A DNA stretch of 64,000 nucleotides, from positions 85,559 through 149,558 of the forward strand of contig CAYNSO010000001.1 of assembly GCA_964399735.1 (NCBI GenBank), written 5' to 3'. The notes below the pieces were generated by a model. That model had not been told where the DNA came from. It was given only the letters and a program-made list of their open reading frames with translations, and searched no databases. The first letter of the stretch is position 1. The number at the start of each line of letters is the position of its first letter. Shown one piece after another: positions 28,085 to 47,476 of this stretch. Both the position numbers and the translations under genes were made by a program. This stretch comes from an uncultured Cytophagia bacterium. GTDB lineage: Bacteria > Zhuqueibacterota > Zhuqueibacteria > Residuimicrobiales > Krinioviventaceae.

Positions 28085-31000
28085 TTATTCGCTACGCAAT
28101 GCTGGTAACAAATTTTGGTGCAAGGCGAGTTTTACGGCCAGATAAATCCATAAAAATCCACAGGCTAACAATGATAATATTGTAATGATAATCGAAAGCG
28201 TTGGCGGCTGTGCACCCGGAGTTGAGAAAACCGGCAATATCGAGATCAGTGCAGCAACACTTCCGGCAACAACCCCGGCGAGTAGCAAAAATAAATGTTC
28301 GGATAACAGATACTTGTATATATCGGTTTGTTTGTACCCAACGGCTGTAAGTAAAGCCAGTTCTGAACGGCGTTCCAGAACATTGCGAACTACGACAATA
28401 CCAAGGCCAATGCTGCCCAGTAACAATCCCAGGCCACCCAAAGATAAAAAAATTGATAAATAGGTATTTTCGATTTTATTAAAAGCAGCCAAACGCTGCG
28501 GTGCAGTTACCAGTTCCAGACCATAATTTTGCAATGAAAAATTCAGCTCTTTTTCAACCGTGGTGCGTAGTGATTGTGGTGCATCAGCTAAAAAGACTTT
28601 ATAGCCGCCAATGGTTGGAAATTTGGCGGTAAACAATGAATCCGAAATCAGCACATGTCCCTGAAATAGAGAGTTTGCAAGGCTTCCAATAATGTATAAC
28701 TTTAACGAATCGCCGTTTTCACTTTGATAGTAAAGAGTATCGCCAATTTCCATGTATAAATTCCAGGTGAGTACGGTCTGGTCAACAATAGCGGGAATAA
28801 TATTTTCACCCCTGGTGTGGTTCAATGCCAACCAGGGATGCTCGGCATTAACGCCCGGTATAGTTTTTATAAAGGTAAACGCGTTGCGATTATCAAATTC
28901 ATACGCCGGAACTCCCAATATCTTTGGTTGCCGTACCATATTCAGGTTAAGACAACTTGCTTCATCTCCTTCTTTAAGGCGGCATTGCACAAATTTAACC
29001 AGCGCGGCCTCTTCAGGGGGCATGTTTAAAAACGCCTGTCCTTTTTCATTATTTAAATTATGCAGGATTGGTGAGACAGTTTCACCCCAAAAGGCAAAGC
29101 CACCGGTACCGGAATCGCGTTTATCAGCATTAAGCAAAGTTCCGTGCCGGTTGGCGCCCTGGGCGATGACCAGAAAAATGCCGCAGGCAAGTAAGGTAAT
29201 GATGGCAAGACTGTTCTTTTTATTGCGACTGCTGTTTAGTATCCCCAATCGTAAAAGCGTGAGATTGGTTTTATTGGCGGGTTTTTGTAAATTGACTAGA
29301 TAGATATTGCACCAGCTAACCGCTGCAATTAATAATAACGTTCCGGCTCCAAAAAAAACACCGGCAGCTTCCTTACCCCGGCCAGGACCGGACAATAACA
29401 GAATGATCAATACACCGGACAAAGAAACAGCGGCAATGAGACGGGAAATGAGCAGCGATTTTTTAGTGAAAGCGGATTGATACCGACTTGTTCCATGTTG
29501 CAAATCTGTAATTGATTTCATCGTTTGTTTAAAAAGAATAAAAGCAATGATGGAACATACAACGACCAAAGTGATCAAAAAGCCGGTCAATAAAGTCTGT
29601 GGCTGCAAATCAAGCATTAATAACGGTTCGCCGACAACATCCTTCCATAAACTTCCCAACGCCCATAGTACAAACTGATTATAGACAATACCGAATAAAA
29701 TTCCGGCCAAGGCTCCGGGAACAGCAACAGCAAGAAACTCTATAAAAAACAAAGTTTTAACCTGCATGTTTGTAAAGCCGATTCCCAGCAACAAACCTGT
29801 TTCAGCAGCACGATTTTCCAGTCCAAATGTAACTAGTAGACCGGTCAATACAAGTCCGGCAACGATAATAAAAAAGCTCAAACCCAGGAACAACTCGCCA
29901 AAATCCTGGGCATTGGCGCTGGCTTGCAGTCCGTCTGCCAAAACCGGAGCAAAGAACAATCCGGCTGTTTCAGGTTTCAGGTTTACACGAATCGCAGAAT
30001 CGATCTGTGCTTGATGGTATTTTGTATTGGAAAAACGCACCAGGGTAAGATTTCCGTAGCGGTTGCCCCACATCTTTTGTGCCTGGGCAAGTGTTACAAA
30101 GGCTTTGGGAGTTCCGCGAAATGAATCCCAATAGTCTTCGTCCTTTTTGCGAATTTTATCCAGATCGATTGGAATACCCGGATCCCAATCCCGGCAATTT
30201 TCTGCATCGACCAAACCGGGGAACTGTGGTACAAGGTTTTTATCCAACGCTCTCCCCTGCATTGGTACAACACTATAAAGAGTAAATTGAGTGGATTGCT
30301 GAACAATGTCTCTACCTGACCCTATGATATAATAATCAATAATAATCTTGTCCCCAATACTGGCTTGCAGATCATCAGCGGCCCATTGATTCAGAATAAT
30401 ACAACTATCCGGCATTTTTTCCGGTACAAGTGGTAAACCGGGCGCGGAGATGAATGAATATGGGGTTGTGTTTCCATTGGACTGTATTTGATTGACAAAG
30501 TAACCAAAAAAGCCGTTATATTTCAAGCCGGTTTGATTAATGGCGTCAATAATCACCGGTTCAATAAAGACACGGGATGAAATCAACTCTTGAGTATTTG
30601 TGAATAGATCGTGCCGAGTCGTCAAGCTTGCATCAGCGAGATTAAAATTTGTTCGCAAAGCGCTGTTGACCTGATCCAGTTCAACAGTACGGGAGTTATT
30701 ATTTGCGACAAGAATCATATTTACCTGATCCTGGCTATCAACCGCATTTTGCAGTGTCGGTAAGGGAATAAAAACATTATATGGCGGTACCTGGCTGTTT
30801 TGCAATCCAAAAGAACCAAATTGTCGATCATCAAGAATCGCGCTTACTGTCACCCGTAATGCAGCGCTTTTTTGCATATCCCGGGCAAAGGGAGCATCAA
30901 GTGGAAAATAATTGATTTTATTGACTCGCAAAATCAATTCATCATTGATTTTTAATGACATTTTTCGGGCAAGGTGAACGTTGATGGCAACCTGATCTAG

Positions 31001-31390
31001 TAAAGTATCTTCCATGGCAAATTTTTTGCGGGCCATCGCCCAAAATCGTTTATCCACGCCATTGAGCTGCACATGATTCACCCGGTTTTGGCCGCCTCCT
31101 GTCATAGCAATTCCTTTTAATTGCAAAACCGGGGCGGTTTGCACCTGCAAGTCAACGCCAATTTTGGTTGCCAACTCGGCGCGAACATGGCGTTCGCCGC
31201 TGTTCATAGCAAATTCAGTTTTACCAAGCCGGTTTAAAGTCATTTGTTTGAGGCTATAGCTGACCGAATCGCCAATAATCAGCGCTCCGGTCAAAATACC
31301 ACAACTTAGCATCGTTCCAAGCATAACCGGTAAATGCTGGCGTTTAAAGTAAAATAAAAAACTGTTTTTTATCAATCGCAATAACGTCAT
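28085..31390 (-). CDS. Large ABC permease with two FtsX modules (YbbP/MacB-type, 1101 aa)
   Basis: Two FtsX-type TM bundles (around ...GLENRAAETGLLLGIGF... and ...NVLERRSELALLTAVGY...). Each is preceded by a large extracytoplasmic domain. Confidence 0.8.
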   Translation of the reverse strand: MTLLRLIKNSFLFYFKRQHLPVMLGTMLSCGILTGALIIGDSVSYSLKQMTLNRLGKTEFAMNSGERHVRAELATKIGVDLQVQTAPVLQLKGIAMTGGGQNRVNHVQLNGVDKRFWAMARKKFAMEDTLLDQVAINVHLARKMSLKINDELILRVNKINYFPLDAPFARDMQKSAALRVTVSAILDDRQFGSFGLQNSQVPPYNVFIPLPTLQNAVDSQDQVNMILVANNNSRTVELDQVNSALRTNFNLADASLTTRHDLFTNTQELISSRVFIEPVIIDAINQTGLKYNGFFGYFVNQIQSNGNTTPYSFISAPGLPLVPEKMPDSCIILNQWAADDLQASIGDKIIIDYYIIGSGRDIVQQSTQFTLYSVVPMQGRALDKNLVPQFPGLVDAENCRDWDPGIPIDLDKIRKKDEDYWDSFRGTPKAFVTLAQAQKMWGNRYGNLTLVRFSNTKYHQAQIDSAIRVNLKPETAGLFFAPVLADGLQASANAQDFGELFLGLSFFIIVAGLVLTGLLVTFGLENRAAETGLLLGIGFTNMQVKTLFFIEFLAVAVPGALAGILFGIVYNQFVLWALGSLWKDVVGEPLLMLDLQPQTLLTGFLITLVVVCSIIAFILFKQTMKSITDLQHGTSRYQSAFTKKSLLISRLIAAVSLSGVLIILLLSGPGRGKEAAGVFFGAGTLLLIAAVSWCNIYLVNLQKPANKTNLTLLRLGILNSSRNKKNSLAIITLLACGIFLVIAQGANRHGTLLNADKRDSGTGGFAFWGETVSPILHNLNNEKGQAFLNMPPEEAALVKFVQCRLKEGDEASCLNLNMVRQPKILGVPAYEFDNRNAFTFIKTIPGVNAEHPWLALNHTRGENIIPAIVDQTVLTWNLYMEIGDTLYYQSENGDSLKLYIIGSLANSLFQGHVLISDSLFTAKFPTIGGYKVFLADAPQSLRTTVEKELNFSLQNYGLELVTAPQRLAAFNKIENTYLSIFLSLGGLGLLLGSIGLGIVVVRNVLERRSELALLTAVGYKQTDIYKYLLSEHLFLLLAGVVAGSVAALISILPVFSTPGAQPPTLSIIITILSLLACGFLWIYLAVKLALHQNLLPALRSE

Positions 31391-31395
31391 GGTGG

Positions 31396-32112
31396 CTATT
31401 TTTCCCGGGTTAAATGTCCTTCTTGCAAATGATAAATGACATTCATTTTATCCGCTAGTTCAGGCGAATGAGTAACCATAATCAAAGTCAAATGAGATTT
31501 TTGTTGTAAATTTATTAATAATTCAACAAGATGAATGGATGATTGATGATCCAGCGAACCGGTCGGTTCATCGGCAAGCAACAGTTTGGGTTGATTGATC
31601 AGCGCCCGCACTACCGCAACCCGCTGGCATTCTCCGCCTGATAATTGTCCGGGACGGTGATTGAGGCGATCTGCAAGTCCAACACTTGTGATTAAAAGCA
31701 GAGCTCGTTCCCGTGCGGAGAAATAGTCCGGCTTTTTTTGCGCCAGAACCGGCACCAGGACATTTTCAAGCAATGTGCATTGCGGAAGTAGATGATGCTG
31801 TTGAAAAATAAAACCGATTTCCCGGTTACGAACCGCAGCCAGTTGGTCATTATTCAAGGTAGACAGATCAAAGCTATCTAATAAAACCTGACCGGAAGAT
31901 GGTCGATCAAGAGCGCCAATAATGTTTAGCAAAGTACTTTTACCGGATCCTGAGGGGCCGATAATTGCAATAGATGCACCGGTATCGGCAGTGAGGGAAA
32001 TATCGTCAAGAACAGTCAAGCCTGCAGGATTATCCGGGATTGAATATGTTTTTTTTAAATTTTTAATTTCGAGCAACACTTGAAAATTCCTTGTTTTGAG
32101 ATACTTGATCAA
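31396..32112 (-). CDS. ABC transporter ATP-binding protein (YbbA/LolD/MacB type)
   Basis: Walker A GPSGSGKST, signature LSGGECQRVAVVRAL, Walker B LLLADEPTGSLD. Confidence 0.92.
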   Translation of the reverse strand: MIKYLKTRNFQVLLEIKNLKKTYSIPDNPAGLTVLDDISLTADTGASIAIIGPSGSGKSTLLNIIGALDRPSSGQVLLDSFDLSTLNNDQLAAVRNREIGFIFQQHHLLPQCTLLENVLVPVLAQKKPDYFSARERALLLITSVGLADRLNHRPGQLSGGECQRVAVVRALINQPKLLLADEPTGSLDHQSSIHLVELLINLQQKSHLTLIMVTHSPELADKMNVIYHLQEGHLTREK

Positions 32113-33404
32113 GTTACAAATTTTTTATATACTTGTTCCATCGCCAGCGCCATTTTTTCAATATTAAAAAGTGCGGAAACATTCCGGGCGCCTTGCTCTC
32201 CCAGGGTTGCTGCATAATTATGATCGCTTAATACTTTTTTTAATGCTAAAGCCAGACCGGCCGGAGTTTTGTCACTATAAATCAGTCCGCCGTTGGTGCT
32301 GGCAACCAACTCGGGAAAAGCGCCGATATTGGGTTGAACAACCGGTACGCCGGCAGCAAATGCTTCGATCAGATAGGTTCCAAAAGCCTCTCCATTAAGA
32401 ACGGGTACAGACAGAATGGTAAGCGACTGTAAAAACTTACGACGTTGTTCATGATCAAAGCCGGTGTAAATTGTAATATCATTACCAAACCCGGCTGCAA
32501 TAAATTTGTGTTGTTGTTGTTTAACAAATTTTTCGTTATTGGCTGTATATCCGCCCATCAATTGGAGTTTAATATCTTGAAAACTGTGGTCTTTTTTTAA
32601 CAACAGACAAGCATCCGTCAAAAGGTCAAGACCTTGAGCCTTGCACAAACGCGATAAAAAACCGATAACCGGAGGATTAAATGGCAGAGGATTCGGAGTA
32701 AAATCAGCGAGGGGGATGCCAATATAGATTGTATGCAGTTTATCAGCCGGAATTTGTATTTTTTTTTGCATTTCAGCTGCCCAGTAGTGACTAACAGCAG
32801 TGAATGCAGCAACATCACGGCCTTTTTCTGCCATCAGGTCCCAAACCCGTTGCTGGAATTGCGGCGCCATGGGATTGATCCACTGATCTTCATCCTGCAA
32901 AGAACAAAAAACCGGAATATTGAGATCGTGTTTAATTTTTGAGGCCAACCCCAGCAACAGAGCATTGGATAAATGTACGACATCCGGTTTTTCATGGTTT
33001 TTTAACCAATTTATCAGGTGCTGCAATTCTGTGGCCTGGTTTCCCAGTTCACCTTGCAGCATGGAAATGGTCATATCCTCCATACCGGCAGCGTTTGTTG
33101 ATCCGGCCTTGTGCGCGGCCATGTTAAGCAGAATTTTTGAATCCATCAGCCTTTCCAGCCACAGCGGCGCTTTGCGATAAAGCGGCATAACCTGTTTCAA
33201 ATAAGTGTTGATCGCCCCGTAAAAAACCGGCGTATCGCCGAAATAGTTTTTCTCCGGTTCATCAATGTTGACCGGTAAATACATAGGCACAATTGCAACT
33301 TCATGTCCGCGTTTACGCAGCTCTTTAACCAAAGAGTTATCGCGCATGCAATTCTGGCAATAAAAAGAATCTCCCGAACCCGGTACAATATGCACAATTT
33401 TCAT
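32109..33404 (-). CDS. GT-B fold family-4 glycosyltransferase
   Basis: C-terminal donor-binding region GEAFGTYLIEAFAAGVPVV. N-terminal MKIVHIVPGSGDSFYCQNC. 431 aa. Confidence 0.8.
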   Translation of the reverse strand: MKIVHIVPGSGDSFYCQNCMRDNSLVKELRKRGHEVAIVPMYLPVNIDEPEKNYFGDTPVFYGAINTYLKQVMPLYRKAPLWLERLMDSKILLNMAAHKAGSTNAAGMEDMTISMLQGELGNQATELQHLINWLKNHEKPDVVHLSNALLLGLASKIKHDLNIPVFCSLQDEDQWINPMAPQFQQRVWDLMAEKGRDVAAFTAVSHYWAAEMQKKIQIPADKLHTIYIGIPLADFTPNPLPFNPPVIGFLSRLCKAQGLDLLTDACLLLKKDHSFQDIKLQLMGGYTANNEKFVKQQQHKFIAAGFGNDITIYTGFDHEQRRKFLQSLTILSVPVLNGEAFGTYLIEAFAAGVPVVQPNIGAFPELVASTNGGLIYSDKTPAGLALALKKVLSDHNYAATLGEQGARNVSALFNIEKMALAMEQVYKKFVT

Positions 33405-34555
33405 TCTGCATCTCCAAAAGCATAAACCTGACCATCTTCTGCACCGATTAAAATCATACCATTAACAACTGCCGGAGATCCGGTAATGGAGCTAACCAGA
33501 TCATAAGACCAAATTAATTCACCAGTAACGAGATTTACCATGTATAAATTTCCATCTGCGGAACCGAACACAACTTTATTGTCGCATATTACCGGTGAAC
33601 TATCGACTTCATCACGGGTGTGAAATATCCACATCATTTTACCGGAAGCACGGTTCAGGCAGTGCAAATTATTATCGCGCGAACCAATGACCACATATTT
33701 TTCATCAACTGCAGGAGAAGAAAAAAATGGTGCGCTGTTTTGCTCGCTCTGGTATTCCCATAAAAGTTTGCCGGTTTTAATATCAATGCAAATCACTTTT
33801 TCATCATAATGCCCCAGGTAGGCAAAATGACCTGCAAGCGCCGGAGAAGCAGCGATATAGGAATCAGTATTGACGGCATTAATTTTTTCCCCACTGGCAG
33901 CGTCAATCACATAAAGCTGTGCATCGCAGCCGCCAAAAATAATTTCTCTACCATTTGTCGCCGGAGCGCCATTAATAAAATTTTCAGTAGGAAAAGTCCA
34001 AACCGGGTTCCCGGCCAAATCTACGCAGTGCATTACATTATCATAACTGCCAACAATAATCCGGGCAGCCTGTTTGTCATTCCCGGCGATATAATTGGCG
34101 GATCCCATAATGCGGTCGCCGGTTGGATATACCCAAATTGAATCGCCTGTAAAAGCGTGCAACGCATAGAGGTTATTATTCATTGAGCCGATAAATACCA
34201 GGGTATCATAGACCACTGGCGGCGCTTCAACAGCATCACCGGTATTGAAACTCCAGAGTTGAGCGCCGCTGTTGATATTTAACGCATACAGGTAGCCGTC
34301 GTTTGAACCGATATAGACAATAGAATCCAAAATAACCGGTGATGAGGTGATTTGATCACCAGTTTTGAAGGTCCATAATAATTTCAGGGAATTTGATAAC
34401 GCGCCGGCAGCGACTCCTGATAAACCGGAATCTCCGCGAAAGATTTGCCAATTATCGGAGCCGGATGTATTGGCGTCCCCGGATTTTTTACCGGATTGGC
34501 AATGCAGCAACATGATTATGACCAAAAAAAGAAATAATTTAAACAACTTTATCAT
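33401..34555 (-). CDS. Exported PQQ/BamB-like beta-propeller (signal peptide, possible lipoprotein)
   Basis: Signal peptide ending ...MLLHC. Repeated blade motif of the A.D..TG...W type (ALNINSGAQLW, ALHAFTGDSIW, CIDIKTGKLLW, MVNLVTGELIW). N-proximal WQIFRGD. Confidence 0.8.
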   Translation of the reverse strand: MIKLFKLFLFLVIIMLLHCQSGKKSGDANTSGSDNWQIFRGDSGLSGVAAGALSNSLKLLWTFKTGDQITSSPVILDSIVYIGSNDGYLYALNINSGAQLWSFNTGDAVEAPPVVYDTLVFIGSMNNNLYALHAFTGDSIWVYPTGDRIMGSANYIAGNDKQAARIIVGSYDNVMHCVDLAGNPVWTFPTENFINGAPATNGREIIFGGCDAQLYVIDAASGEKINAVNTDSYIAASPALAGHFAYLGHYDEKVICIDIKTGKLLWEYQSEQNSAPFFSSPAVDEKYVVIGSRDNNLHCLNRASGKMMWIFHTRDEVDSSPVICDNKVVFGSADGNLYMVNLVTGELIWSYDLVSSITGSPAVVNGMILIGAEDGQVYAFGDAE

Positions 34556-36132
34556 TTTTCCTCACCTTTTTTTAAAGCCAGTGCGCCGGTCGGACAATGA
34601 ATGACACATTCTGCCGCCACCCGGCTCAATCCGGCAGCCAGTTCATGATTAAAGGGAATACCGATTTTCACATTAAAACCGCGACCGATAAACGTTAATC
34701 CCAGTTTCTCTGCCGATTTTTCTGTGATCTGCACGCAAATACCGCATTTGATACATTTGCCGGGCTCGTAAATAATAGTTTGATGTTGATCGATCAATTC
34801 AACAGGCTTGCGATTTATGTTGGAATAACGTTTCTGATCGGCGCCATATTCCTGTGCATATTGTCGTAATTTACAGCCTTCCGGTTTACGGCAATCGCAT
34901 CGCAGGCACCGCGAGGCCTCATAAACTGCCTCTTGCGCAGAAAAGCTACCGGATTGCGTATCGGCCGGGAATTTGCCGGAACCGGGATTGACCAAAGCCA
35001 GCATGGCTTGCAAATCCTGCTGTGTAAGCTTGCCAATGCTTGAATTAAAACGACCCGGCAAAGGTTCGATTTGCTGGTTTGATAAATACTGATGCACCGA
35101 ATGAGCGATTGTTTTGCCTTGAGCTACCGAGCGGATTGCCATACGGATTTCCCGCACCGCGCTGCCTCCGGCAAAAACGCCTTTAACGCTGGTAACAAAA
35201 GTTTTTGAATCGACGGAAAACCCTTTACCGGAGATAATTTCAATGCCAAATTGTCCGGCCAGAGTTTCATCAATAACACCGGTCGCCAGCACAACAGCGT
35301 CATATTTTTTTAAAAGTTCAGCAAAAAGAATATCCTGGCCGATGGTTTGTTGAAAAATAAACTGCGCACCGAGCTTGGCAATGCCCGCAATTTCTTTGTC
35401 CAATACATCAGCCGGACATTTTGCAGGATCGATGCCATAGCGAAGCGTCCCTCCTGCCAGTCTGTTTTTATCGTAAATATCACAGGCGTGGCCGAGTTGC
35501 AGCAAATGATATGCGGCAGCCAGGCCGGTTGGGCCGGAGCCGATAATGGCTACTTTTTTACCGGAAAAAGGTGCACATTCCGGGATAAATTCAGCGGTAG
35601 AGTTTAAATCTGCATCAGCGGTAAAACGCTTTAACAAGCAAATGGAAACCGGTTCATCAATTCTGGCCCGATTGCATACTTTTTCGCAGGGCGCGGGGCA
35701 TATCCTGCCTAACACAGCCGGTAGAGCAATGTCTTTTTTAACTGTACGAATGGCGTTATCCAGTTCACCTGCGGCAATTTGCCGTAACATTTGCGGAATA
35801 TTCATGTGTGCCGGGCAGCCTTTTTGACACGGCGCTTCACAATCACCAATATGCTCGCTAAGCAATAATTCCAGGGCATCGCGACGGGCGGCTTGCACCT
35901 CATCCGAGTCGGTGTCGATAACCATGCCCTCCTGTACTCGCGTAGAACAGGATGGCAATAACCGGCCGCTTTTATGGTCTTTAACAACGCAAACCATACA
36001 GGATGTAAACGGTTCCAGTCCCTCCATAAAACACAGAGTTGGAATGGTTATGCCGAGTTGTTTTGCTGCCTGTAAAATTGTGGTCGAGTCCGGGACTGTG
36101 ATTTTGCAACCATTTATGGTTATCTCGTGCAT
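34552..36132 (-). CDS. Fusion of 2Fe-2S ferredoxin, GltD-like NAD(P)H flavoprotein and C-terminal 4Fe-4S domains (NfnB/StnC-like)
   Basis: N-terminal NuoG-type 2Fe-2S region (TLCFMEGLEPFTSCMVCVV). GltD-type cluster motifs GDCEAPCQKGCPAH and GRICPAPCEKVC. Dinucleotide fold KKVAIIGSGPTGLAAAY. C-terminal CLRCDC, CIKCGICV and IHCPTGAL. Confidence 0.85.
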   Translation of the reverse strand: MHEITINGCKITVPDSTTILQAAKQLGITIPTLCFMEGLEPFTSCMVCVVKDHKSGRLLPSCSTRVQEGMVIDTDSDEVQAARRDALELLLSEHIGDCEAPCQKGCPAHMNIPQMLRQIAAGELDNAIRTVKKDIALPAVLGRICPAPCEKVCNRARIDEPVSICLLKRFTADADLNSTAEFIPECAPFSGKKVAIIGSGPTGLAAAYHLLQLGHACDIYDKNRLAGGTLRYGIDPAKCPADVLDKEIAGIAKLGAQFIFQQTIGQDILFAELLKKYDAVVLATGVIDETLAGQFGIEIISGKGFSVDSKTFVTSVKGVFAGGSAVREIRMAIRSVAQGKTIAHSVHQYLSNQQIEPLPGRFNSSIGKLTQQDLQAMLALVNPGSGKFPADTQSGSFSAQEAVYEASRCLRCDCRKPEGCKLRQYAQEYGADQKRYSNINRKPVELIDQHQTIIYEPGKCIKCGICVQITEKSAEKLGLTFIGRGFNVKIGIPFNHELAAGLSRVAAECVIHCPTGALALKKGEEK

Positions 36133-38480: not shown

Positions 38481-38486
38481 GTTTTA

Positions 38487-40196: not shown

Positions 40197-40199
40197 TAT

Positions 40200-41486
40200 T
40201 TATACTCCTTTTAACTCATGTAAACGTTCATGTTCCTTCGGACAAGAGGTAAAACAACGCCCGCAACTCAAACAATTAGCCCGATCGGGTTCATAACTTG
40301 TGTGCCGCCGCCAGAATTGCAAATAAATTAGTTTCATCATAAACACCAGGGCGATAAATGCACCCAAAACCCATGAACCGGTTTTGAATTTTTTTTGTAC
40401 CTGTGCAGCTTGCTGATACAACACGGATGTCGGCGTTCCGGCGCTGCGAAAGGCTTTACTGTCGTCGGTGATGACACTGGTTTGCCCTGTATCTTCAAGA
40501 CGGATCTGCTCGGCAAGCTGAACAATGTAATGTTCGCGTGAAAGCAATATTGATAAACGCGAAAATGACCAGGCGCTGATCACGAGAATTACCGGGGTAA
40601 GCGCCAGCAGCAAGAATAACCTGCGCCGGGTTTTAGCCGGTTCACCGGGGTATTTATCGGGTGTAGGAATCTGAATGGCCTCGAACGGACAGGAATCAGC
40701 ACATAAATGGCACTGGATACATTCGTTCGGAGTGATGGTTGCGTGCCGTTTTGAGAGCATCGACAGCCATTTTAGCAGCACACCAAATGGACATAAAAAA
40801 CGGCAGTACGGCCGCGCGATGAACATACCGGTAATAATTATGACAATACTGAAAATAAACATTCCTTCATTAAAACCGAACCGGAAAAAACCGACGAATG
40901 GGTCAAACCGACAGATCAGATAACCTGCGCCGGTGGCTGCATAAAGTACAGCAAAACCAAGATAGAGATAGGGTATCAAGCCCAGTACCTGATTCAGCCA
41001 GGCAGGTATTTTTTGCGGCCGAACAATCACGGCATCTTGAACAGCGCCCAGGGGGCAAACAGCGGCGCAAAATGTGCGGCCAAAGAACAAGGTGAAAATT
41101 AATGGTAAAATAAAAAATACCACTGCAGATAATGGAATAATGTAGGTTGAATCAAACAACGCCGTAGTTACATTTTGAATAGAGCCGACCGGACAGATAC
41201 AACCCTGGCGATGAAAACCAAAATACCAGAGAGAAAACAACATCAAGGCAAATATCAATTTGCGGGAGCGACGTCGCAACACCAGCCAGGAAGAGAGCGA
41301 CAGTGTCAGCAATAACACCGTCATATCGACATATTGCCAGGTATCGGCGCGGGGAGTTGGACTGGTCGGTACCGGCTGTATATACCCTGATTCAAAATCC
41401 GGCCGCGGGAAACGTTGTTCAACAGGAAGGCAAAAGTGGTTGCCTATCGCCAATAGTACCAATAAAAAAAAGAGACCCTTTTTCAC
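40200..41486 (-). CDS. NapH/NosH-type integral-membrane polyferredoxin
   Basis: Multiple TM helices carrying CxxCP-type motifs (GCICPVGS, FCAAVCPLGA, YCRFLCPFG). Two ferredoxin motifs CIQCHLCADSCP and CLSCGRCFTSCP are separated by two extra TM helices. Confidence 0.8.
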   Translation of the reverse strand: MKKGLFFLLVLLAIGNHFCLPVEQRFPRPDFESGYIQPVPTSPTPRADTWQYVDMTVLLLTLSLSSWLVLRRRSRKLIFALMLFSLWYFGFHRQGCICPVGSIQNVTTALFDSTYIIPLSAVVFFILPLIFTLFFGRTFCAAVCPLGAVQDAVIVRPQKIPAWLNQVLGLIPYLYLGFAVLYAATGAGYLICRFDPFVGFFRFGFNEGMFIFSIVIIITGMFIARPYCRFLCPFGVLLKWLSMLSKRHATITPNECIQCHLCADSCPFEAIQIPTPDKYPGEPAKTRRRLFLLLALTPVILVISAWSFSRLSILLSREHYIVQLAEQIRLEDTGQTSVITDDSKAFRSAGTPTSVLYQQAAQVQKKFKTGSWVLGAFIALVFMMKLIYLQFWRRHTSYEPDRANCLSCGRCFTSCPKEHERLHELKGV

Positions 41487-42088
41487 GATATTTCTCCGTT
41501 TACCGGATTTGGCAGTTCCGAACTTGCTACGCCGCCGCGGAACAGGTATGGTTTATTGGCAGGCACACGCACAAAGGCATCTGCAGGGCAGCTTTTGGCA
41601 ATGGCACATTCATTACAATTGACACAACGGTCGTGCCGAACCTGTAAAAAAAGCGAACCATTGCCGAAGGAGTCACAACCTTTTACGCATTTGGCACAGC
41701 CGATACATAATTCTTCATCTATAGTATATTGAAAATATGGTTCCTCAATAAAAGTACGTTTTATAGCGCCGGCAGGACATTGCTGGCTTTCTGCAGCCGT
41801 ATCCAGATTTTTTACACCAGGTCGGTGATAGCCGCCACACAGATCGCAATAACCGCACATGGCATATTGATGCACGCATTTTACCGCCGAGGGACTGAGT
41901 ACACAATTGGTGGCGCAGCGTTCGCATTGAATACATTTATCGGGGTCGATTTGCCACACCAGGTTAGCCGGTGACGATTTACTCAGCGTTATTCCTGCCA
42001 GGCCGCCTATAGCCAGCGCGGCTGTGGTATGCAAACCTGCTTTAATAAATTGCCGGCGATGTACCGGTTTGTTGTCTTGTTCATTCAT
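41483..42088 (-). CDS. Tat-exported NapG/NosG-type ferredoxin with four [4Fe-4S]-type motifs
   Basis: Twin-arginine motif HRRQFIKAG followed by a hydrophobic region. Cys motifs CIQCERCATNC, CGYCDLCGG...CP, CIGCAKCVKGC and CVNCNECAIAKSCP. Confidence 0.85.
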   Translation of the reverse strand: MNEQDNKPVHRRQFIKAGLHTTAALAIGGLAGITLSKSSPANLVWQIDPDKCIQCERCATNCVLSPSAVKCVHQYAMCGYCDLCGGYHRPGVKNLDTAAESQQCPAGAIKRTFIEEPYFQYTIDEELCIGCAKCVKGCDSFGNGSLFLQVRHDRCVNCNECAIAKSCPADAFVRVPANKPYLFRGGVASSELPNPVNGEIS

Positions 42089-42114
42089 GACATGATCCTG
42101 TTACGAATATTTTA

Positions 42115-42315
42115 TTATCTACCGGGCATTTGTGCCGGTTGATGGGGACAATGACCGTTTTGTGAGCATCCGGCGCAGTCGCCTGGTGATGTACAGGGTT
42201 GTCCCTGGACTGATGGAACACTTTTTTTGCTCAGCAACAATGCCGCAAATACTGCCAACAGTGCAGCGGTTAAATATCTGATAATATCGGCAATAAATTC
42301 TCGTCGTGAGGTCAT
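42115..42315 (-). CDS. 66-aa protein with a twin-arginine-like N-terminus, one hydrophobic segment and a CX5CX2CX5C tail
   Basis: MTSRREFIADIIRYLTAALLAVFAALLLSKK then ...GQPCTSPGDCAGCSQNGHCPHQ. Its ATG overlaps the TGA of the upstream NHL gene (ATGA at 42312-42315). Coding status is inferred from this coupling and from the motifs. Confidence 0.5.
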   Translation of the reverse strand: MTSRREFIADIIRYLTAALLAVFAALLLSKKSVPSVQGQPCTSPGDCAGCSQNGHCPHQPAQMPGR

Positions 42316-43316
42316 ATTTTACCTGCAATTGAATTGTTATGTTGAAAAACCCGCACCACACGGGCGGACGGATCGAGAACATAGATACAATCATCGGTAT
42401 CAACGGCAACATCAAGGCCGACTGTGCCAGGGGTAAACAGTGATGGCGGCGCTACTATGCAAACAAATTGCCCGGCACGATTATAAACTTTAACCCGTTC
42501 CAGTCCTTTTTCCGCAGTGACAAACGAGCCATCAGACATCAGGGCAAAATGCGATGGATTACAGCAGCCGCTGAATCCTTCAATACCTATGGAGGAGATG
42601 CCCCAATGGGAGCGCAGCGCTCCTGTCGGGGTGTAATTTTCCAGCCTGAGCTTTCCGGTATTGACTGCCCAGATAAAACCGTCCTCATCCACAGCCACAT
42701 CAAAATAAGGGCTGGGAATCACGAAACCAATAATATCCCTGCTTACATCCCTCTCCCCTATCCGGTTCAGCAAATTTCCGTTTTGGTCATAACGAAGCAC
42801 AATCTGTTTACCGGCATCAGCGGCGTATACATTATCATTTAATGCAGCAATGGAAGTGATAAACGAATTGGCATGACAGGGCTGCCAGCGCTGTAATAAA
42901 GAGCCGGTGGTATCATAAATTTCGATATGATTTCCAACACCGGATAGAATGTTGAAATGTTGATCAACAGCAAGGCAGCTTATAGCATTGGCAGTTGTAA
43001 ATGAGCGTTGCAATTGGCCGTCCGGTGTGTAAACAAGAATACTGCTATCGCCGCTGACAATCAACCGTTTATCGAACGTTACTGCCAGAGCGCGGGGTTT
43101 TGCAAGATAGAGTTGAATTTTTCTGATTTGTGTATAGTGGATCAATTCCACCGGAACATGACGATAGGTTTCAATATCATATTCATAGGGATTATCGCTA
43201 GTCGGGGGAGTTTTACGGGCCAGGGAATGATAGCCCAACCAGGTAATACCAGTTGCAATAACAATCATAACCAGAATGGTTGTGATTGTTCGTATACCGG
43301 ATGATTGCCTGTTCAT
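42312..43316 (-). CDS. Membrane-anchored six-bladed NHL-type beta-propeller
   Basis: N-terminal TM anchor. Six units of the x-[IV]-x-[IVL]-[YF]-x3-G-x-[LF] type (ILVYTPDGQL, IEIYDTTGSL, VLRYDQNGNL, LENYTPTGAL, VKVYNRAGQF, VVRVFQ). GGAGGTGA RBS before ATG 43316. Confidence 0.7.
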   Translation of the reverse strand: MNRQSSGIRTITTILVMIVIATGITWLGYHSLARKTPPTSDNPYEYDIETYRHVPVELIHYTQIRKIQLYLAKPRALAVTFDKRLIVSGDSSILVYTPDGQLQRSFTTANAISCLAVDQHFNILSGVGNHIEIYDTTGSLLQRWQPCHANSFITSIAALNDNVYAADAGKQIVLRYDQNGNLLNRIGERDVSRDIIGFVIPSPYFDVAVDEDGFIWAVNTGKLRLENYTPTGALRSHWGISSIGIEGFSGCCNPSHFALMSDGSFVTAEKGLERVKVYNRAGQFVCIVAPPSLFTPGTVGLDVAVDTDDCIYVLDPSARVVRVFQHNNSIAGKI

Positions 43317-43419
43317 AAATCACCTCCAGAAAAAAAGCGGGATTTAATTGGCAGCAATTGCAAAAGCAAAAGCTGATGATAATGATTAAACAAAAAGAAA
43401 ATCCTTTTAATTTAAATTT

Positions 43420-44835
43420 TTAAATCTCTATACATACCATCCTTTTTGAATCCCGCAACAACATACGACCATCGGCAACAGCTATCGGTCCCCAGGCGTC
43501 CGGGCCGTCCAATACTTTAGTTCTGGCAAGCTGTTTGTAGCCCTGGGTACTTGCCTCAATAACAGTCAGTTCACCTTCATCGCTGAGGATAAAAAATTTA
43601 TCATCGACAAAAATATATGGGCCCAGGCCAAAACGGTTGGTTTTATCGCTGCTCCATACATAACGTGTAATATCATCAGGGTTGCAGCAGACAAACTGGT
43701 TGCGCATTGGTCCGGCGTCTTTGGGCAATACACAGAATAGATGACCTTGATAAAGAATCGGAGTTTGCTGTTCGGATGACAGGCCGTCTTTCGGGAGCGC
43801 TTTGTGCAGGATATCGACAGACCATACATTATTTTCTTCTTTTAATTGCAACAACATCGAACCGGCGCCATATCCTGCGGTTACAAAAATTCGTCCATCC
43901 GGTATAAAAATTGGCGATGGCGCAATTACGTTATGGCTCCAGGCCGTAGATTGCCACAGGATCTGTCCTGCATCATTCCCTGCTGCAGAAATACCGGCAA
44001 TACCGCCGGTTGAACAATAGATATACATTTTTTTATTGTTAAAAGTAACCGGCATAACAGAGGAATGGGACATTTGCCAGTTGCCGGGATTCGGTACGCT
44101 CCATACAACCTGGCCGGTTTTGCAACTGACTGCAATGACCAGTGCATCACCGCCGGTTGCAATTATTGCCAGCGAATCGTCGATAAGCGGGCACTGACCT
44201 GTGTACCAGAGCGGCACCTGGGCATTATAATCCTGCACCAGGTCTATACCCCAGCGAAAATTTCCTGAATCGGCATCCACGCACATTACGTGGCATTGCG
44301 GGCCAATTGTTACCACATATTCATCGGTAACCGCTGGAACGGTACGGGACAAGCCATGATTTCTTTTCATAGGATTGCTATACCAGCGCCGCCATATCTC
44401 TTCGCCGGAGAGCAGTGAAAAACATCGCAAGGCATCGGCATGGTTGGTTTCATCATAATCCAGCACATAGACCCGCCCTTTATGAATGGCCGGCCCGGCA
44501 TGACCTTCGCCGAGTTCAACAGACCATAAAATTTTGGGGGAACCGCCAGCCCAGGCTATATTTGCTTTCTCATTACTAAAATTATCAAAATTACTGCCCC
44601 GGAATCGCGGCCAGGAACCCTGCAACTGCCCGGCAACTCCGTTAAAACGCTGAAAGAACTCACCAATTTTTACTGCCGATGCTGATGAGTTGGATCGTTG
44701 CGGACGATTATCCATTCCGGGAACATTTTCGGTAAAGCGAGCGGTGGGATCATAAAATAACCAGAAACCGGTTACTCCGGCGGCGGATAGGATAAAGAAT
44801 ATAATTATAAATTTTATAACACGATTATAATTCAT
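43420..44835 (-). CDS. Membrane-anchored PQQ/BamB-like beta-propeller
   Basis: N-terminal signal-anchor helix. WPRFRGSNFDN motif. Blade motifs (CFSLLSGEEIW, CVDADSGNFRW, AVSCKTGQVVW). C-terminal ADGRMLLRD is shared with its paralogs. Confidence 0.8.
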   Translation of the reverse strand: MNYNRVIKFIIIFFILSAAGVTGFWLFYDPTARFTENVPGMDNRPQRSNSSASAVKIGEFFQRFNGVAGQLQGSWPRFRGSNFDNFSNEKANIAWAGGSPKILWSVELGEGHAGPAIHKGRVYVLDYDETNHADALRCFSLLSGEEIWRRWYSNPMKRNHGLSRTVPAVTDEYVVTIGPQCHVMCVDADSGNFRWGIDLVQDYNAQVPLWYTGQCPLIDDSLAIIATGGDALVIAVSCKTGQVVWSVPNPGNWQMSHSSVMPVTFNNKKMYIYCSTGGIAGISAAGNDAGQILWQSTAWSHNVIAPSPIFIPDGRIFVTAGYGAGSMLLQLKEENNVWSVDILHKALPKDGLSSEQQTPILYQGHLFCVLPKDAGPMRNQFVCCNPDDITRYVWSSDKTNRFGLGPYIFVDDKFFILSDEGELTVIEASTQGYKQLARTKVLDGPDAWGPIAVADGRMLLRDSKRMVCIEI

Positions 44836-44878
44836 AAATTTGAATTGTTATTGAGAAACGAAATAATATAAAAATTAA

Positions 44879-44902
44879 GGTGCGCCGGTAAAAGAACGCA
44901 CC
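44879..44902 (-). terminator. Weak hairpin that may act as an internal terminator or attenuator between propeller genes
   Basis: GGTGCG (44879-44884) / CGCACC (44897-44902) forms a 6-bp stem with a 12-nt loop. On the minus strand it is followed by the T-rich TTAATTTTTAT. It lies 57 nt after the upstream stop codon. Confidence 0.3.
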
Positions 44903-44958
44903 ATAATGCAAATAAATGTACAACAATTTGATTTTGAAAACAAACTGAATCGCAGCGA

Positions 44959-46218
44959 TCAAGCCTTAATTGAAAAGGCCTGTAACGATTCACCATGACG
45001 AACATACATAACGCCATTGGCAATGGAAATATGTGCCCAGAATGGGCCGCTGCCTTCGGTTATGGTAAAGGAACTGACCAGGTCAAATTTTTGCGGATTT
45101 GGTTTAACAAGCCCGACATTACCGTTCTTCTCATCATAAATATAGAGCATACCGTCGGCGGCAATGATTGACCCTTTACAATGCCAGGTCGTTTCGTACA
45201 TTGTCTTGCCGGTTTCCCAATCAAGGCACACCCAGTTACCGGTCATATTGTTTTTCCAGTTGGCGCCATAGATATATCCGTCCACGAGTACTACGCCGCC
45301 GTGATGAACGTCCAGCGTATTTTCTACCCATTTGCGGGTAACCTTTGTGCCGTCGTCAGAGAGTAGAAACATGGCGCTGCCGGAATTATATCCTTCGGTG
45401 ATAAAGATACCGCCGTCATGATAGACCGGTGAAGTCGGATTGATAGAACCATTTTTCGGCCAAAAATCTTTTAATGTCTCTTTCCATAATAAATCGCCGT
45501 TTATGCAGTCGATGCCAATAAATGATTTTTCTACAACGGTTGAGATAATTTTTTTGCCGCCGTATTCAATCATAATCGGGTTACAGTAGCTGGATTTATC
45601 AATCACACCTATCGGCACCCAAACGGTTGTGCCGGTCATTTTATTCAAAGCGACGACTGTGGCATCCGGGCCGCCCGGTGTACAGTAGACATTTTTTTCA
45701 TCTACCAGCAAACATTCCGAAATCCCCCATCTGTCGTATTCGCCACGAAACCGTTCAACGACATGGACAGCCCATTTTTGCGCGCCGGTATTGGCGTCGA
45801 AACAAACCAGCTGACCTACGCCGCTGATGACGTAAACCCGGTCGCTATCAATTGTTGGCGTTGATCTTGGATCAGGATAGGAATGCAGCCAGGCATCGCC
45901 GTACTTTTGCTTCCAAAGCATTTTGCCGGTCAGATCGAATGCCATAATATATTCTTGTTTGTCGAACATACCGGTAATATATAACTTGTTGTTGGCAACC
46001 GCAGCGGAAGAATGGCCGGCGCCAATAGTATTAACAGACCATAATAATTGGGGGCCGCTTTCCGGCCAAGATTTGAGCAGACCGGTTTCCGGGGAATGAC
46101 CATTGCGATTTGGCCCACGAAATTGCGGCCAGTCGGCAGCAATCAGAGTTTGATTGAATATAAACAAGATCACTACTGATAAAAACGCCAACCATGATAT
46201 TGATTTAAATATCTTCAT
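44959..46218 (-). CDS. Secreted PQQ/BamB-like beta-propeller (tandem paralog)
   Basis: Start at ATG 46218 with a GGAG RBS. Signal peptide MKIFKSISWLAFLSVVILFIF. WPQFRGPNRNG motif. Collinear similarity to the upstream paralog over the whole length. Confidence 0.8.
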   Translation of the reverse strand: MKIFKSISWLAFLSVVILFIFNQTLIAADWPQFRGPNRNGHSPETGLLKSWPESGPQLLWSVNTIGAGHSSAAVANNKLYITGMFDKQEYIMAFDLTGKMLWKQKYGDAWLHSYPDPRSTPTIDSDRVYVISGVGQLVCFDANTGAQKWAVHVVERFRGEYDRWGISECLLVDEKNVYCTPGGPDATVVALNKMTGTTVWVPIGVIDKSSYCNPIMIEYGGKKIISTVVEKSFIGIDCINGDLLWKETLKDFWPKNGSINPTSPVYHDGGIFITEGYNSGSAMFLLSDDGTKVTRKWVENTLDVHHGGVVLVDGYIYGANWKNNMTGNWVCLDWETGKTMYETTWHCKGSIIAADGMLYIYDEKNGNVGLVKPNPQKFDLVSSFTITEGSGPFWAHISIANGVMYVRHGESLQAFSIKA

Positions 46219-46243
46219 ACATAAACTCCACATAATTTTGATA

Positions 46244-47476
46244 CTATTTTTTTGTCGGTTCTGCAATGGAATATACCATTAATGCATTACCGTGGCGAAC
46301 ATACAGCCTGCCATCCCGGATGACTGTATGCGCCCAATGCTGGTCGGCGCCTTTGGTGATCGGGAATTTACTGACAACCGTCCAGCTTGCCGGATCAGCT
46401 TTTACCAACGCCATTTCACCCTTTTCCGAATAACAATAAAACATACCGTCTGCATAAATAATATTGCCATTGCCTAACTCGCGGGACTGAAACTGGCTGA
46501 CGCCGTCTTCCCATTTCAATGCCTGCCAATGCCTTTTCCGGTCACCGGAACCATAAATATAACCATTCAATACTACAAAAGCGCTGGTTTTGGGATCAAG
46601 GGTTTTGTTTTTCCATACTTGAGTTACACTCTTGCCGTCAGCTGAAAGTTTAAGCATTACGCTACCGGTTCCATAACCACTGGCGCAATAGACATGACCG
46701 TTTTTATAAAAGGGGGTGTTTGGATTTATGTCCCAGTCAGTTTTATGCGGGTGAGACCAGTAAAATTCGCCGCTATCGGCATTTAAACAAACGATGGATT
46801 TCTGGGTCATGGTTAAAAACAGCCGCACATTATTATGTGTAACAATAACCGGCGAACAATAAGCGGAAGGTTCGCTGAAATTTGTACTTTTCCAGATTAA
46901 CTTGCCGCTCATTCTATCCAAAGCAATGATGCTGGCGTTCGCGCCACCAGAGTTAACAAATATACGGTTGCCGTCAACCAGCGGAGATTCGGCGATCCCC
47001 CAACGAATTACATTACCATTATAGGTTTTTACTGCGTCAACAGACCAAACCCGGTTGCCAGATGTAATATCAAAGCAAGATACAACGCCATAAGCGCTGA
47101 TTATATACAAGTGATTTCCAACTATGGTCGGTGTAGAGCGCGCGCCGGGATAATCTCCAGTCCATTCAGTACCATAAGCTTTTTTCCATAGTAACTTTCC
47201 ACTGGTGTTAAACGCAAATAAATAACCGGTTCCATCTATCATACCGGTAACAAAAACTTTATCGGCAGTCACAGCGGCAGATGAATGTCCCTGACCCAAA
47301 CCGTCAGCTTCCCACAATAAAGTTGGTCCGGTGGCTGGCCAGGTTTTCAATAAATTTTTATCCGGATACACACCGTCGCGGTTTGGGCCTCGCCATTGCG
47401 AATCGATTTGACCGGTAACCATGGATGCCAGAATCAGCATCCAGATAAATAAAAAAGCAATACGTTTTGTTTTCAA
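46244..47476 (-). CDS. Secreted PQQ/BamB-like beta-propeller (first gene of the block)
   Basis: Signal peptide MKTKRIAFLFIWMLILASMVTG. QWRGPNRDG motif. Blade motifs (CFDITSGNRVW, ALDRMSGKLIW, CLNADSGEFYW). C-terminal RDGRLYVRHGN. Confidence 0.8.
   Translation of the reverse strand: MKTKRIAFLFIWMLILASMVTGQIDSQWRGPNRDGVYPDKNLLKTWPATGPTLLWEADGLGQGHSSAAVTADKVFVTGMIDGTGYLFAFNTSGKLLWKKAYGTEWTGDYPGARSTPTIVGNHLYIISAYGVVSCFDITSGNRVWSVDAVKTYNGNVIRWGIAESPLVDGNRIFVNSGGANASIIALDRMSGKLIWKSTNFSEPSAYCSPVIVTHNNVRLFLTMTQKSIVCLNADSGEFYWSHPHKTDWDINPNTPFYKNGHVYCASGYGTGSVMLKLSADGKSVTQVWKNKTLDPKTSAFVVLNGYIYGSGDRKRHWQALKWEDGVSQFQSRELGNGNIIYADGMFYCYSEKGEMALVKADPASWTVVSKFPITKGADQHWAHTVIRDGRLYVRHGNALMVYSIAEPTKK

Follow-up and report, generated by a model that had tools for sequence, protein, structure and literature searches.

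The DNA analyzed here is a 64-kb window of contig CAYNSO010000001.1 (assembly GCA_964399735.1) from an uncultured bacterium, and all positions below are those of the window. It carries a block of 14 consecutive minus-strand open reading frames (ORFs) at 28085-47476, which encode beta-propellers, iron-sulfur (Fe-S) proteins, flavoproteins, a glycosyltransferase and an ATP-binding cassette (ABC) transporter. We numbered the genes P1 to P14 in transcription order. A preliminary description of this DNA, made from its letters alone, had placed the 14 ORFs correctly and had given their junctions as we find them: five overlaps of 4 nt, one overlap of 13 nt, gaps of 3, 5, 6, 25 and 26 nt, and two larger spacers of 103 and 123 nt. 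It had also called the 4-nt overlaps ATGA type, which is right for three of them, while P6/P7 reads GTGA and P12/P13 reads TTGA. The 25-nt gap between P1 and P2 holds only if P2 begins at the ATG at 46218; the longest P2 ORF begins at a TTG at 46266, and the ATG is the sensible start, yielding a good signal peptide. Both flanks consist of housekeeping genes (argH, argG and uvrC upstream; a ComM/YifB-like ATPase, NfeD and an SPFH protein downstream) and the remainder of the window is ordinary chromosome, so the block forms a discrete unit. Searches against Pfam and NCBIfam matched all of the domains previously claimed for the 14 proteins, and a hydropathy scan together with the N-terminal sequences agreed with the locations assigned to them across the cell envelope.

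The conservation of the block was followed by scanning GTDB species genomes with a P7 profile, which returned at least 574 relatives. The best 80 loci were taken with 10-kb flanks, all of their six-frame ORFs were compared with the 14 window proteins by phmmer, and phyla were assigned from the names in the record titles. Cluster genes surround P7 in 80 of 80 loci, colinear or kept together, and these loci span about ten phyla or candidate phyla. Carriers include KSB1, Calditrichota, Aminicenantes/Acidobacteriota, Latescibacterota, Kiritimatiellae, Lentisphaerota, Poribacteria and Aegiribacteria, as well as Planctomycetota (Phycisphaerae, Sedimentisphaerales, 'Pirellulales' and Thermoguttaceae) and Bacteroidota (Bacteroidales, Lentimicrobiaceae, Marinifilaceae, Prolixibacteraceae, and the cultured Ancylomarina euxinus M1P and Ancylomarina sp. 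DW003). The presence of individual genes was counted in the 38 loci that have full 10-kb flanks on both sides. P4, P7 and P8 occur in all 38, P6, P9 and P10 in 37 each, P3 in 36, P11 in 32, and P1 or P2 in 31; P12, P13 and P14 were found in 24-27, counts that are underestimated because P14 falls outside the 10-kb flank. P9 and P10 directly follow P8 in 37 of the 38 loci, the exception (L009) being a locus that has neither gene. The order is rearranged in Planctomycetota, where P11-P14 come first, upstream, and P1/P2 come last, downstream; every part is still adjacent to the rest. Flanking genes vary by lineage. The preliminary description had proposed one dedicated system, and the redox and propeller genes are indeed linked in all 80 loci, with no unlinking seen elsewhere. 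The block is an evolutionary unit and is self-contained.

A terminal enzyme hidden just outside the block was also considered. This candidate was rejected: the flanks in the window are housekeeping genes, and no unrelated family recurs near the cluster in more than 7 of the 38 loci for which both flanks are complete. P3, P4, P8 and P6 have correlated bit scores from locus to locus (Spearman rho 0.63-0.90), which is consistent with a shared complex, but shared phylogeny would give the same result. Locus L082, on a 6.5-Mb contig with independent gene calls, has the same 14-gene order, including the 66-aa ORF that corresponds to P5. The order uvrC-argG-argH lies directly upstream of the cluster both there (L082 1-4165) and in the window (47724-52280), and the two P7 proteins are 58% identical. 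The chromosomal position of the cluster is thus conserved within this, possibly KSB1-related, lineage.

Two of the most widely retained genes encode a cytoplasmic flavoprotein module. P9 (36120-38480; 786 aa) is a fusion of NuoE and NuoF/HydB and represents a Bfu-type NADH/flavin mononucleotide (FMN) module. It matches 2Fe-2S_thioredx, Complex1_51K, NADH_4Fe-4S and two Fer4 domains, and it carries two [2Fe-2S] and three [4Fe-4S] motifs whose cysteines are conserved. Residues 178-782 align full length to the StnB/NfnB chains 8oh5_B, 9n5u_B and 9bov_B, with E values of 1e-207 to 1e-219. The N-terminal 155 residues are a NuoE/BfuC domain (2Fe-2S_thioredx 1e-47, residues 11-154). Compared with the Stn/NfnABC enzymes (PDB 8oh5, 9n5u and 9bov; PMC10482914, PMC9304861), P9 therefore corresponds to BfuB, with BfuC fused to it as the NuoE domain.

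P10 (34552-36132; 526 aa) is a cytoplasmic StnC/NfnA(Bfu)-like protein with Fer2_4, Fer4_20 and GltD-like flavin adenine dinucleotide (FAD) regions. It aligns to 8oh5_C (StnC), 9n5u_A (NfnA) and 9bov_A, in two pieces in the case of 8oh5_C and 9bov_A. P10 residues 4-286 correspond to StnC 6-287 and P10 288-521 to StnC 434-674, so that StnC 288-433 is skipped; against 9bov_A, the segment from about 297 to 420 (residues 298-419) is skipped and the alignment ends near chain residue 674. In StnC, residues 102-565 form a GltD fold in which FAD and NADPH sit on two different Rossmann folds, and residues 683-1172 form an FdhF-like domain that builds the tetramer (PMC10482914). P10 retains the [2Fe-2S] region, the GltD Fe-S clusters, the FAD motif (GSGPTG, GGTLRYGI) and the NuoG-like clusters of StnC/NfnA, but has neither the second, NADP(H)-binding Rossmann fold nor the FdhF-like C-terminal domain. 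A short replacement segment of about 114 residues (positions 230 to 345) is the same in 51 of 53 P10 orthologues. As P10 does not contain the FdhF-like domain, an StnC-type tetramer is probably not formed. The preliminary description had called P9 and P10 a Bfu/Stn-like pair, a label that the full-length StnB/NfnB alignment bears out for P9 but that the two missing P10 domains do not allow for its partner. Judged from these alignments, the pair derives from a Stn/Nfn-Bfu enzyme, and it cannot be a Stn/Nfn transhydrogenase because the NADP(H) third-substrate site has been lost from P10.

A survey of the Bfu family gives Mbh-Bfu and Nuo-Bfu as the only membrane-bound types and mentions no NapH-, PQQ- or periplasm-linked form (PMC9304861). 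In contrast to Stn and Nfn, the module described here uses no NADP+ as third substrate and is genetically welded to a membrane relay and periplasmic proteins. The 'Nfn' assignments made in Bacteroidetes by the same survey (PMC9304861) might include P9-type proteins whose partner has no NADP site.

The membrane relay is built around P7 (40200-41486; 428 aa), a NapH/NosR-type polytopic Fe-S protein with two Fer4_5 stretches (7e-16). More than 4600 homologues were found at E<=1e-10; they are about 50-55% identical and carry source names from several phyla. Hydropathy and charge predict a signal peptide, a 29-residue periplasmic tail with an invariant RFPxPxF motif, and seven transmembrane (TM) helices. 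Invariant cysteines are predicted on both faces of the membrane: C96, C98 and C192 on the periplasmic side, and C140, C144, C228 and C232, in two CX3CP motifs, on the cytoplasmic side. The cytoplasmic 2x[4Fe-4S] domain comprises two CX2CX2CX3CP motifs interrupted by a TM hairpin, whose periplasmic loop of 60 residues is conserved. The sole CXXCH of the block is, as previously noted, part of this ferredoxin motif (CIQCH in P7), and its histidine is not invariant in a 14-sequence alignment. P7 scores 43.8 bits against the NapH hidden Markov model (HMM) TIGR02163 (cut-off 213) and 39.7 bits against NF007013 (cut-off 234); it also lies far below the NosR family cut-off, and a PDB sequence search with P7 returned no relative. 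Its seven TM helices, split ferredoxin domain and conserved periplasmic tail further set it apart from NapH. Members of this family are often labeled 'NosR/NirI family transcriptional regulator' in public annotation.

P6 (41483-42088; 201 aa) is a NapG-type polyferredoxin with Fer4 domains and the twin-arginine motif RRQFIK, in which R11 and R12 are at least 90% conserved. Like NapG, it is exported by twin-arginine translocation (Tat) and has four [4Fe-4S] motifs, and its 17 conserved cysteines would be enough for four [4Fe-4S] clusters; no NapG-specific HMM matched it. One locus from a Bacteroidetes metagenome-assembled genome (L029:9296-11278, plus strand) joins the NapG-like and NapH-like proteins, P6 and P7, in a single 661-aa ORF, which could be a genuine fusion or could reflect a sequencing error, missed stop or frameshift.

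Between P4 and P6 lies P5 (42115-42315), a 66-aa micro-protein with a twin-arginine motif (SRREFI), one TM helix and the cysteine pattern C-x6-C-x2-C-x5-C-P. A small ORF of the same kind sits at this position in nearly all loci and across phyla. It shows xRRxF[L/I], then a single TM helix and the cysteine pattern C-x5-6-C-x2-C-x5-C, after which most have x-L-P. P5 is fused in frame to the N-terminus of P6 in 13 of 78 loci, and there it replaces the Tat signal of P6 itself. These fusions come from at least three lineages: Bacteroidales/Lentimicrobiaceae, one Lentisphaerota genome and one genome labeled 'Pirellulales'. The fusions show that P5 and P6 form one periplasmic, membrane-tethered Fe-S unit, in which P5 is the signal-anchor and an extra 4-Cys module of the NapG-like ferredoxin. 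We also considered P5 as a precursor of a ribosomally synthesized and post-translationally modified peptide that would be acted on by the ABC and glycosyltransferase genes. This idea was rejected, as the arginine pair, TM helix and four cysteines are kept across phyla and P5 is fused to P6 in 13 loci.

The propellers fall into several types, of which P3 (43420-44835; 471 aa) attracted the most attention. Its AlphaFold2 (AF2) model (predicted local distance difference test score, pLDDT, 79) comprises an N-terminal TM helix as anchor, a disordered linker and an 8-bladed propeller. The relatives listed for P3 carry KSB1 and Aminicenantes source names and are about 57-85% identical, mostly about 60%, which is unusually high for a 'BamB-like' protein. 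Invariant residues cluster in the loops before the innermost strands: GEGH112; K157 R158 N159 H160 G S163 R164 T165; W210 Y211 T G Q214 C215 P; M S256 H257 S258 S259; A P S307 P; E355 Q356 Q357 T358 P; R401 F G x G P; and D446 A W448. Judged from the secondary-structure register of the model, and not from measured distances, the polar residues among them appear to line the top of the central funnel, with contributions from every blade. The active site of 8-bladed quinoprotein-fold enzymes occupies this same funnel position. Because its invariant polar residues are predicted to line the funnel, P3 is the best candidate for a catalytic subunit. The preliminary description had suggested that the propellers are the catalytic or substrate-binding parts, and the enzyme-like conservation of the P3 funnel would support a catalytic role.

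Fold searches place BamB closest to P3 and also return tetrathionate hydrolase; the latter match is at the level of the fold (13% identity) and was not used as functional evidence. P3 scores 31.6 bits against the BamB equivalog TIGR03300, and the propellers as a group reach 31.6-165 bits against its cut-off of 285; against the quinoprotein dehydrogenase model TIGR03075 they reach 20-96 bits, with a cut-off of 480. No pqq genes occur within the 64-kb window. Public records name the P3 family 'outer membrane protein assembly factor BamB' (JGI) or 'PQQ-binding-like beta-propeller repeat protein' (NCBI). As the propellers fall far below both equivalog cut-offs, the 'BamB' pipeline names are unsupported, and the public BamB and NosR/NirI names look like systematic over-annotation.

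P4 (42312-43316; 334 aa) is a TM-anchored 6-bladed NHL propeller. It has a weak NHL/SGL match in Pfam, and its AF2 model (pLDDT 88, six blades) matches the NHL domains of TRIM2 and Brat. An invariant vicinal cysteine pair lies in the loop G-C251-C252-N-P. The family comprises 856 clusters (50% identity) at E<=1e-30, and CC[NS]P is present in 148 of the top 150 representatives; on these alignments the pair is a hallmark of the P4 family. P8 (38487-40196; 569 aa) combines three TM helices (residues 19-37, 90-108 and 139-157) with a periplasmic PQQ_2 propeller (2e-28). P1 (46244-47476; 410 aa; PQQ_2 5e-22) and P2 (44959-46218; 419 aa from its ATG) are Sec-secreted PQQ_2 propellers, P1 being of the 8-blade type, and both have plain signal peptides at their N-termini. 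They are 39% identical to each other and 24% identical to P3 over the full length, and they represent P3 paralogues without the P3 funnel residues, with copy numbers of 0 to 4 across loci. The conserved cysteines of P3, P8 and P11 were examined as a possible metal cluster, a candidate that was rejected, as most lie within a repeat strand motif, xCxD..tG. The only conserved cysteines outside the repeat are C181/C185 and C215 of P3 and the vicinal pair of P4.

The preliminary description had found no molybdopterin, copper or hydrogenase motif in the block, and no such domain was matched here. More broadly, the Pfam and NCBIfam searches yielded no match to molybdopterin, cupredoxin, NosZ-propeller, hydrogenase or heme/cytochrome domains among the 14 ORFs, and the conserved neighborhood of the cluster likewise has no heme, Mo, Cu or H-cluster domain.

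The last four genes, P11-P14, travel as a block in which P11 comes first and which lies upstream of P3 in Planctomycetota. P11 (33401-34555; 384 aa) is a further propeller (Beta-prop_ACSF4 6e-70, PQQ_2 6e-38) whose N-terminus reads MIKLFKLFLFLVIIMLLHC, and it is a probable lipoprotein. P12 (32109-33404; 431 aa) is a cytoplasmic glycosyltransferase of family 4 (GT4) with Glycos_transf_1 and Glyco_transf_4 domains. Where GT4 enzymes usually carry a glycine-rich N-terminal loop, its residues 9-22 read GSGxTFYCQNC(M/F)RD. All 11 orthologues that were inspected keep this motif, and among 34 aligned sequences the conservation of C16 and C19 is 90% or more, a CxxC arrangement that suggests a metal- or redox-sensitive site in the glycosyltransferase. 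No P12 match was found by phmmer in several lineages, including Ancylomarina and a further Marinifilaceae locus; L057 and L081 (both Ancylomarina, L081 being A. euxinus M1P), L074 and L012 are examples. Since these lineages keep the remainder of the system, glycosylation is not essential to the core, and the link to glycoconjugate export raised in the preliminary description is weak.

P13 (31396-32112; 238 aa) is a LolD/MacB-type ABC ATPase (ABC_tran 2e-33) that resembles LolD, MacB and DevA, scoring 244 bits against LolD TIGR02211 (cut-off 307.75) and 204 bits against MacB. P14 (28085-31390; 1101 aa) is a duplicated FtsX-type permease with two FtsX stretches. Hydropathy predicts about ten TM helices and periplasmic domains of about 460 and 235 aa; P14 matches the ADOP subfamily at 2.6e-11, and its sole PDB relatives are MacB permeases. 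By these matches, P13/P14 is a type VII (MacB/YbbP-like) ABC transporter. Type VII transporters, such as MacB, LolCDE, FtsEX and YbbAP, convert cytoplasmic ATP into mechanical work on periplasmic partners. By analogy, P11-P14 could take part in maturing or servicing the head formed by propellers, or in dealing with a substrate or product of low solubility. Like those transporters, the pair combines an ATPase with an FtsX permease that has large periplasmic domains. In contrast to them, no MacA/TolC, LolA/B, EnvC or TesA partner domain occurs in the cluster, where the conserved neighbors are P11 and P12, and P14 is longer than the matched MacB chains (654-671 aa).

Signals that might divide the block were sought as well. 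The 123-nt spacer between P2 and P3 contains a terminator-like hairpin (44902-44879, minus strand; 8 bp, 5 GC, T-rich tail). Promoter-like hexamers at 44824-44892 (minus strand) overlap this hairpin and lie just downstream of it, and are consensus matches only. Promoter-like counts from the sigma-70 scan were not above the shuffled expectation, and terminator-like counts were modestly above it (36 versus 25.2, standard deviation 4.6). With the hairpin taken as a hint, P1-P2 may be transcribed apart from P3-P14.

Several characterized systems resemble parts of the block. As in NapGH and NosGH, a polytopic Fer4_5 protein with cytoplasmic [4Fe-4S] clusters and a Tat-exported four-cluster ferredoxin lie beside periplasmic partners. 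In contrast to Nap, no NapA (molybdopterin) or NapB/C cytochrome is present in the 14 ORFs or as a recurrent family in related loci, and the donor encoded alongside is of the NuoEF type, in place of quinol or in addition to it. Clade II nos clusters likewise bring together a catalytic beta-propeller, an ABC transporter and a lipoprotein. NosZ, however, is 7-bladed with CuZ histidine ligands and a CuA cupredoxin domain, whereas no nos_propeller or COX2/cupredoxin match was found here and P3 is predicted to be 8-bladed with no extra domain. The transporter is of the LolD/MacB and FtsX type, not NosFY, and no NosD or NosL domain was matched. BamB, the quinoprotein dehydrogenases and tetrathionate hydrolase share with P3 its predicted 8-bladed PQQ_2/BamB fold, and P1, P2, P8 and P11 belong to the same Pfam family. 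BamB is an outer-membrane lipoprotein, whereas P3 and P8 are TM-anchored in the inner membrane and score below its cut-off.

Meheust et al. (2021; PMC8238504) propose that NapH-like proteins are modular units that move electrons across the membrane for extracytosolic reductases and oxidases. Flavinylated NapH-like systems, including NosR and PceC, also employ a PF12801 polytopic Fe-S protein as a transmembrane wire (PMC8238504). These systems are defined by an FMN-binding domain and ApbE, neither of which was matched in the 14 ORFs or flanks. Here a polyferredoxin with a 4-Cys micro-subunit is the carrier instead, with propellers as partners and a Bfu-type module as donor. Overall, the relay core is of a known kind, either a NapGH/NosGH pair or a NapH-like extracytosolic unit, and the donor is a recognizable Bfu derivative. 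Three elements appear to be new: an acceptor set of six propellers, P5 as a micro-subunit, and a Bfu module welded to a relay that is directed to the periplasm. The preliminary description had not recognized the combination as a described system, and the 14-gene system is apparently undescribed: searches of open full-text literature, Pfam and NCBIfam release 20 gave no match, most subscription-journal papers being outside the search, and the literature yielded only background papers on NapH-like units, Stn and the Bfu family. Nor does any of the ORFs have a full-length match above cut-off to a curated NCBIfam equivalog.

We propose, with moderate confidence, that the block encodes one multi-subunit envelope electron-transfer system that conducts electrons from cytoplasmic NADH through Fe-S proteins to periplasmic propellers. 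P9, by way of FMN, and P10, by way of its Fe-S clusters and FAD, would oxidize NADH and, probably, reduced ferredoxin along with it (confurcation). P10 has no nicotinamide site, and electrons would therefore exit from its Fe-S/FAD end and enter the cytoplasmic 2x[4Fe-4S] domain of P7, which would take the place that NADP+ has in Stn/Nfn. P7 would pass them across the inner membrane through the cysteine motifs on both faces, and the Tat-exported, four-cluster P6 would receive them in the periplasm together with P5. P6/P5 would then reduce a membrane-anchored head of P3, P4 and P8, at which a periplasmic substrate would be reduced, most likely in the P3 funnel with its wealth of basic residues, histidine and cysteine. 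The soluble P1 and P2 may capture or present this substrate, and P11-P14 may act as an accessory module for maturation or for handling of substrate or product.

A confurcating donor would deliver electrons near -400 mV. With such a donor, and with a membrane potential that favors outward flow, the system would be suited to low-potential periplasmic reduction as an electron sink, which would serve anaerobic heterotrophs. Candidate substrates are speculative and include sulfur oxyanions or polysulfide, reactive oxygen or nitrogen species, and metal or organic oxidants. The P3 funnel and the vicinal dithiol of P4 would, again speculatively, suit anionic or sulfur substrates or reactive oxygen/nitrogen species. 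Our confidence in any particular substrate is much lower than in the overall scheme. More tentatively than the scheme itself, and as a possibility that we regard as rather doubtful, the P3/P4/P8 head with P5/P6 could represent a new class of periplasmic terminal oxidoreductase without heme, molybdopterin or copper, driven by the first Bfu-type (NADH and ferredoxin confurcating) module to have its third substrate across a membrane. For its chemistry it might rely on the vicinal dithiol of P4, or else on the P3 funnel, which could hold a metal site or a Cys/His-based site of a novel kind.

A number of points weigh against the proposed outward relay. We infer the direction of flow from energetics only, and the interaction between P10 and P7 is purely conjectural. 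For none of the propellers could a redox cofactor or a metal site be assigned; most conserved cysteines of P3, P8 and P11 are probably structural, belonging to the repeat motif, and fold searches with the AF2 models of P3 and P4 returned only generic BamB-type and NHL propellers. It is not obvious where the ABC/GT4 module would fit into a simple redox chain, and the P2/P3 hairpin is a hint that the block may yield more than one transcript. Finally, P7 may have a quinol site of the kind that NapGH and NosGH use, in which case P9 and P10 would have another role.

This last point leads to a quinol-linked relay, in which menaquinol would supply P7/P6 and hence the propellers, and P9/P10 would be a separate co-regulated oxidoreductase or would service the cytoplasmic clusters of P7. 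P7 shares the NapH domain architecture, and quinol is the donor in the characterized Nap and Nos systems (PMC8238504). P7 is nevertheless far below the NapH cut-offs, P9 and P10 keep their place directly after P8 in 37 of the 38 full loci even when the cluster is rearranged, and a stand-alone soluble enzyme is hard to rationalize once P10 has lost its own nicotinamide site; we regard this explanation as quite unlikely. Somewhat better placed, yet still unlikely, is flow in the inward direction, whereby the head would oxidize a low-potential periplasmic donor and electrons would pass from P6 through P7 to P10/P9, with bifurcation to NAD+ and ferredoxin. PQQ-fold propellers are classically dehydrogenases, NapH-like units have been proposed for oxidases and reductases alike (PMC8238504), and Bfu enzymes are reversible, many of them bifurcating with a third-substrate donor (PMC9304861). 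Such flow, however, would run against the membrane potential and would call for a donor with a potential below about -400 mV. The enzymes that typically act on donors of this kind (hydrogenase, formate dehydrogenase, carbon monoxide dehydrogenase or Mo/W enzymes) are found neither in the cluster nor in its conserved neighborhood, and the propellers score far short of the quinoprotein dehydrogenase cut-off.

Alternatively, the block could encode a machine for envelope biogenesis or maintenance, with propellers, ABC transporter and GT4 building or exporting a glycoconjugate or lipoprotein and the Fe-S chain providing redox control or reductive maturation. The BamB fold of the propellers, the LolD/MacB/DevA-like ATPase with its FtsX-type type VII permease, and the presence of a GT4 and a lipoprotein all fit this idea. 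We nonetheless judge it improbable: all propellers are far below the BamB cut-off, P3, P4 and P8 are anchored in the inner membrane and are not outer-membrane lipoproteins, and several lineages keep the redox core without a GT4 match. Moreover, two flavins and many Fe-S clusters are excessive for regulation, and the most conserved genes are the redox genes and P3. That two or three unrelated operons (propellers; redox; GT4/ABC) merely lie side by side could be argued from the 103- and 123-nt spacers and the terminator-like hairpin. This chance explanation is effectively refuted, because the genes stay linked in all 80 loci from about ten phyla, even after internal rearrangement; P5-P6 fusions occur, and the flanks differ by lineage with no foreign family recurring.

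A system of 12-14 genes that has stayed intact in about ten phyla or candidate phyla presumably serves an important function. Many carriers are sediment or subsurface lineages known only from metagenome-assembled genomes, and the question can be put directly to the test in the cultured Ancylomarina euxinus M1P and Ancylomarina sp. DW003. If the proposed outward relay is correct, it would give fermentative anaerobes a new way to dispose of or use reducing power outside the cytoplasm and would add to the Bfu electron-bifurcation family a reaction that crosses the membrane and faces the periplasm. It would also assign a redox role to 'BamB-like/PQQ-like' and NHL propellers that pipelines now mislabel as BamB or hypothetical, and would change metabolic reconstructions for KSB1, Latescibacterota, Aminicenantes, Phycisphaerae, Kiritimatiellae and marine Bacteroidales. 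Should the new class of oxidoreductase prove real, it would represent a widespread, unrecognized electron sink or respiration-like pathway in anaerobic lineages of the Fibrobacteres-Chlorobi-Bacteroidetes (FCB) and Planctomycetes-Verrucomicrobia-Chlamydiae (PVC) groups and the Acidobacteriota.

Some further features of the window lie outside the block. No riboswitch or other RNA regulator was found in the window, the single Rfam match being a tRNA gene (12238-12312, minus strand). Upstream of uvrC, a nitroreductase-family gene and a gene for an AAA+ ATPase with AAA_2 and ClpB_D2-small domains occupy 52294-52857 and 52990-54531, both on the minus strand, and in other genomes are not tied to the cluster. 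A 383-aa exported protein with five CXXCH motifs (21733-22884, minus strand), encoded about 5 kb downstream and likewise not part of the conserved set, matches Cytochrome_C554/c7 and, weakly, an MtrC-like domain. It adjoins a TonB-dependent receptor with a CarboxypepD_reg domain (19316-21694, plus strand), and it shows that this organism makes periplasmic multiheme cytochromes.

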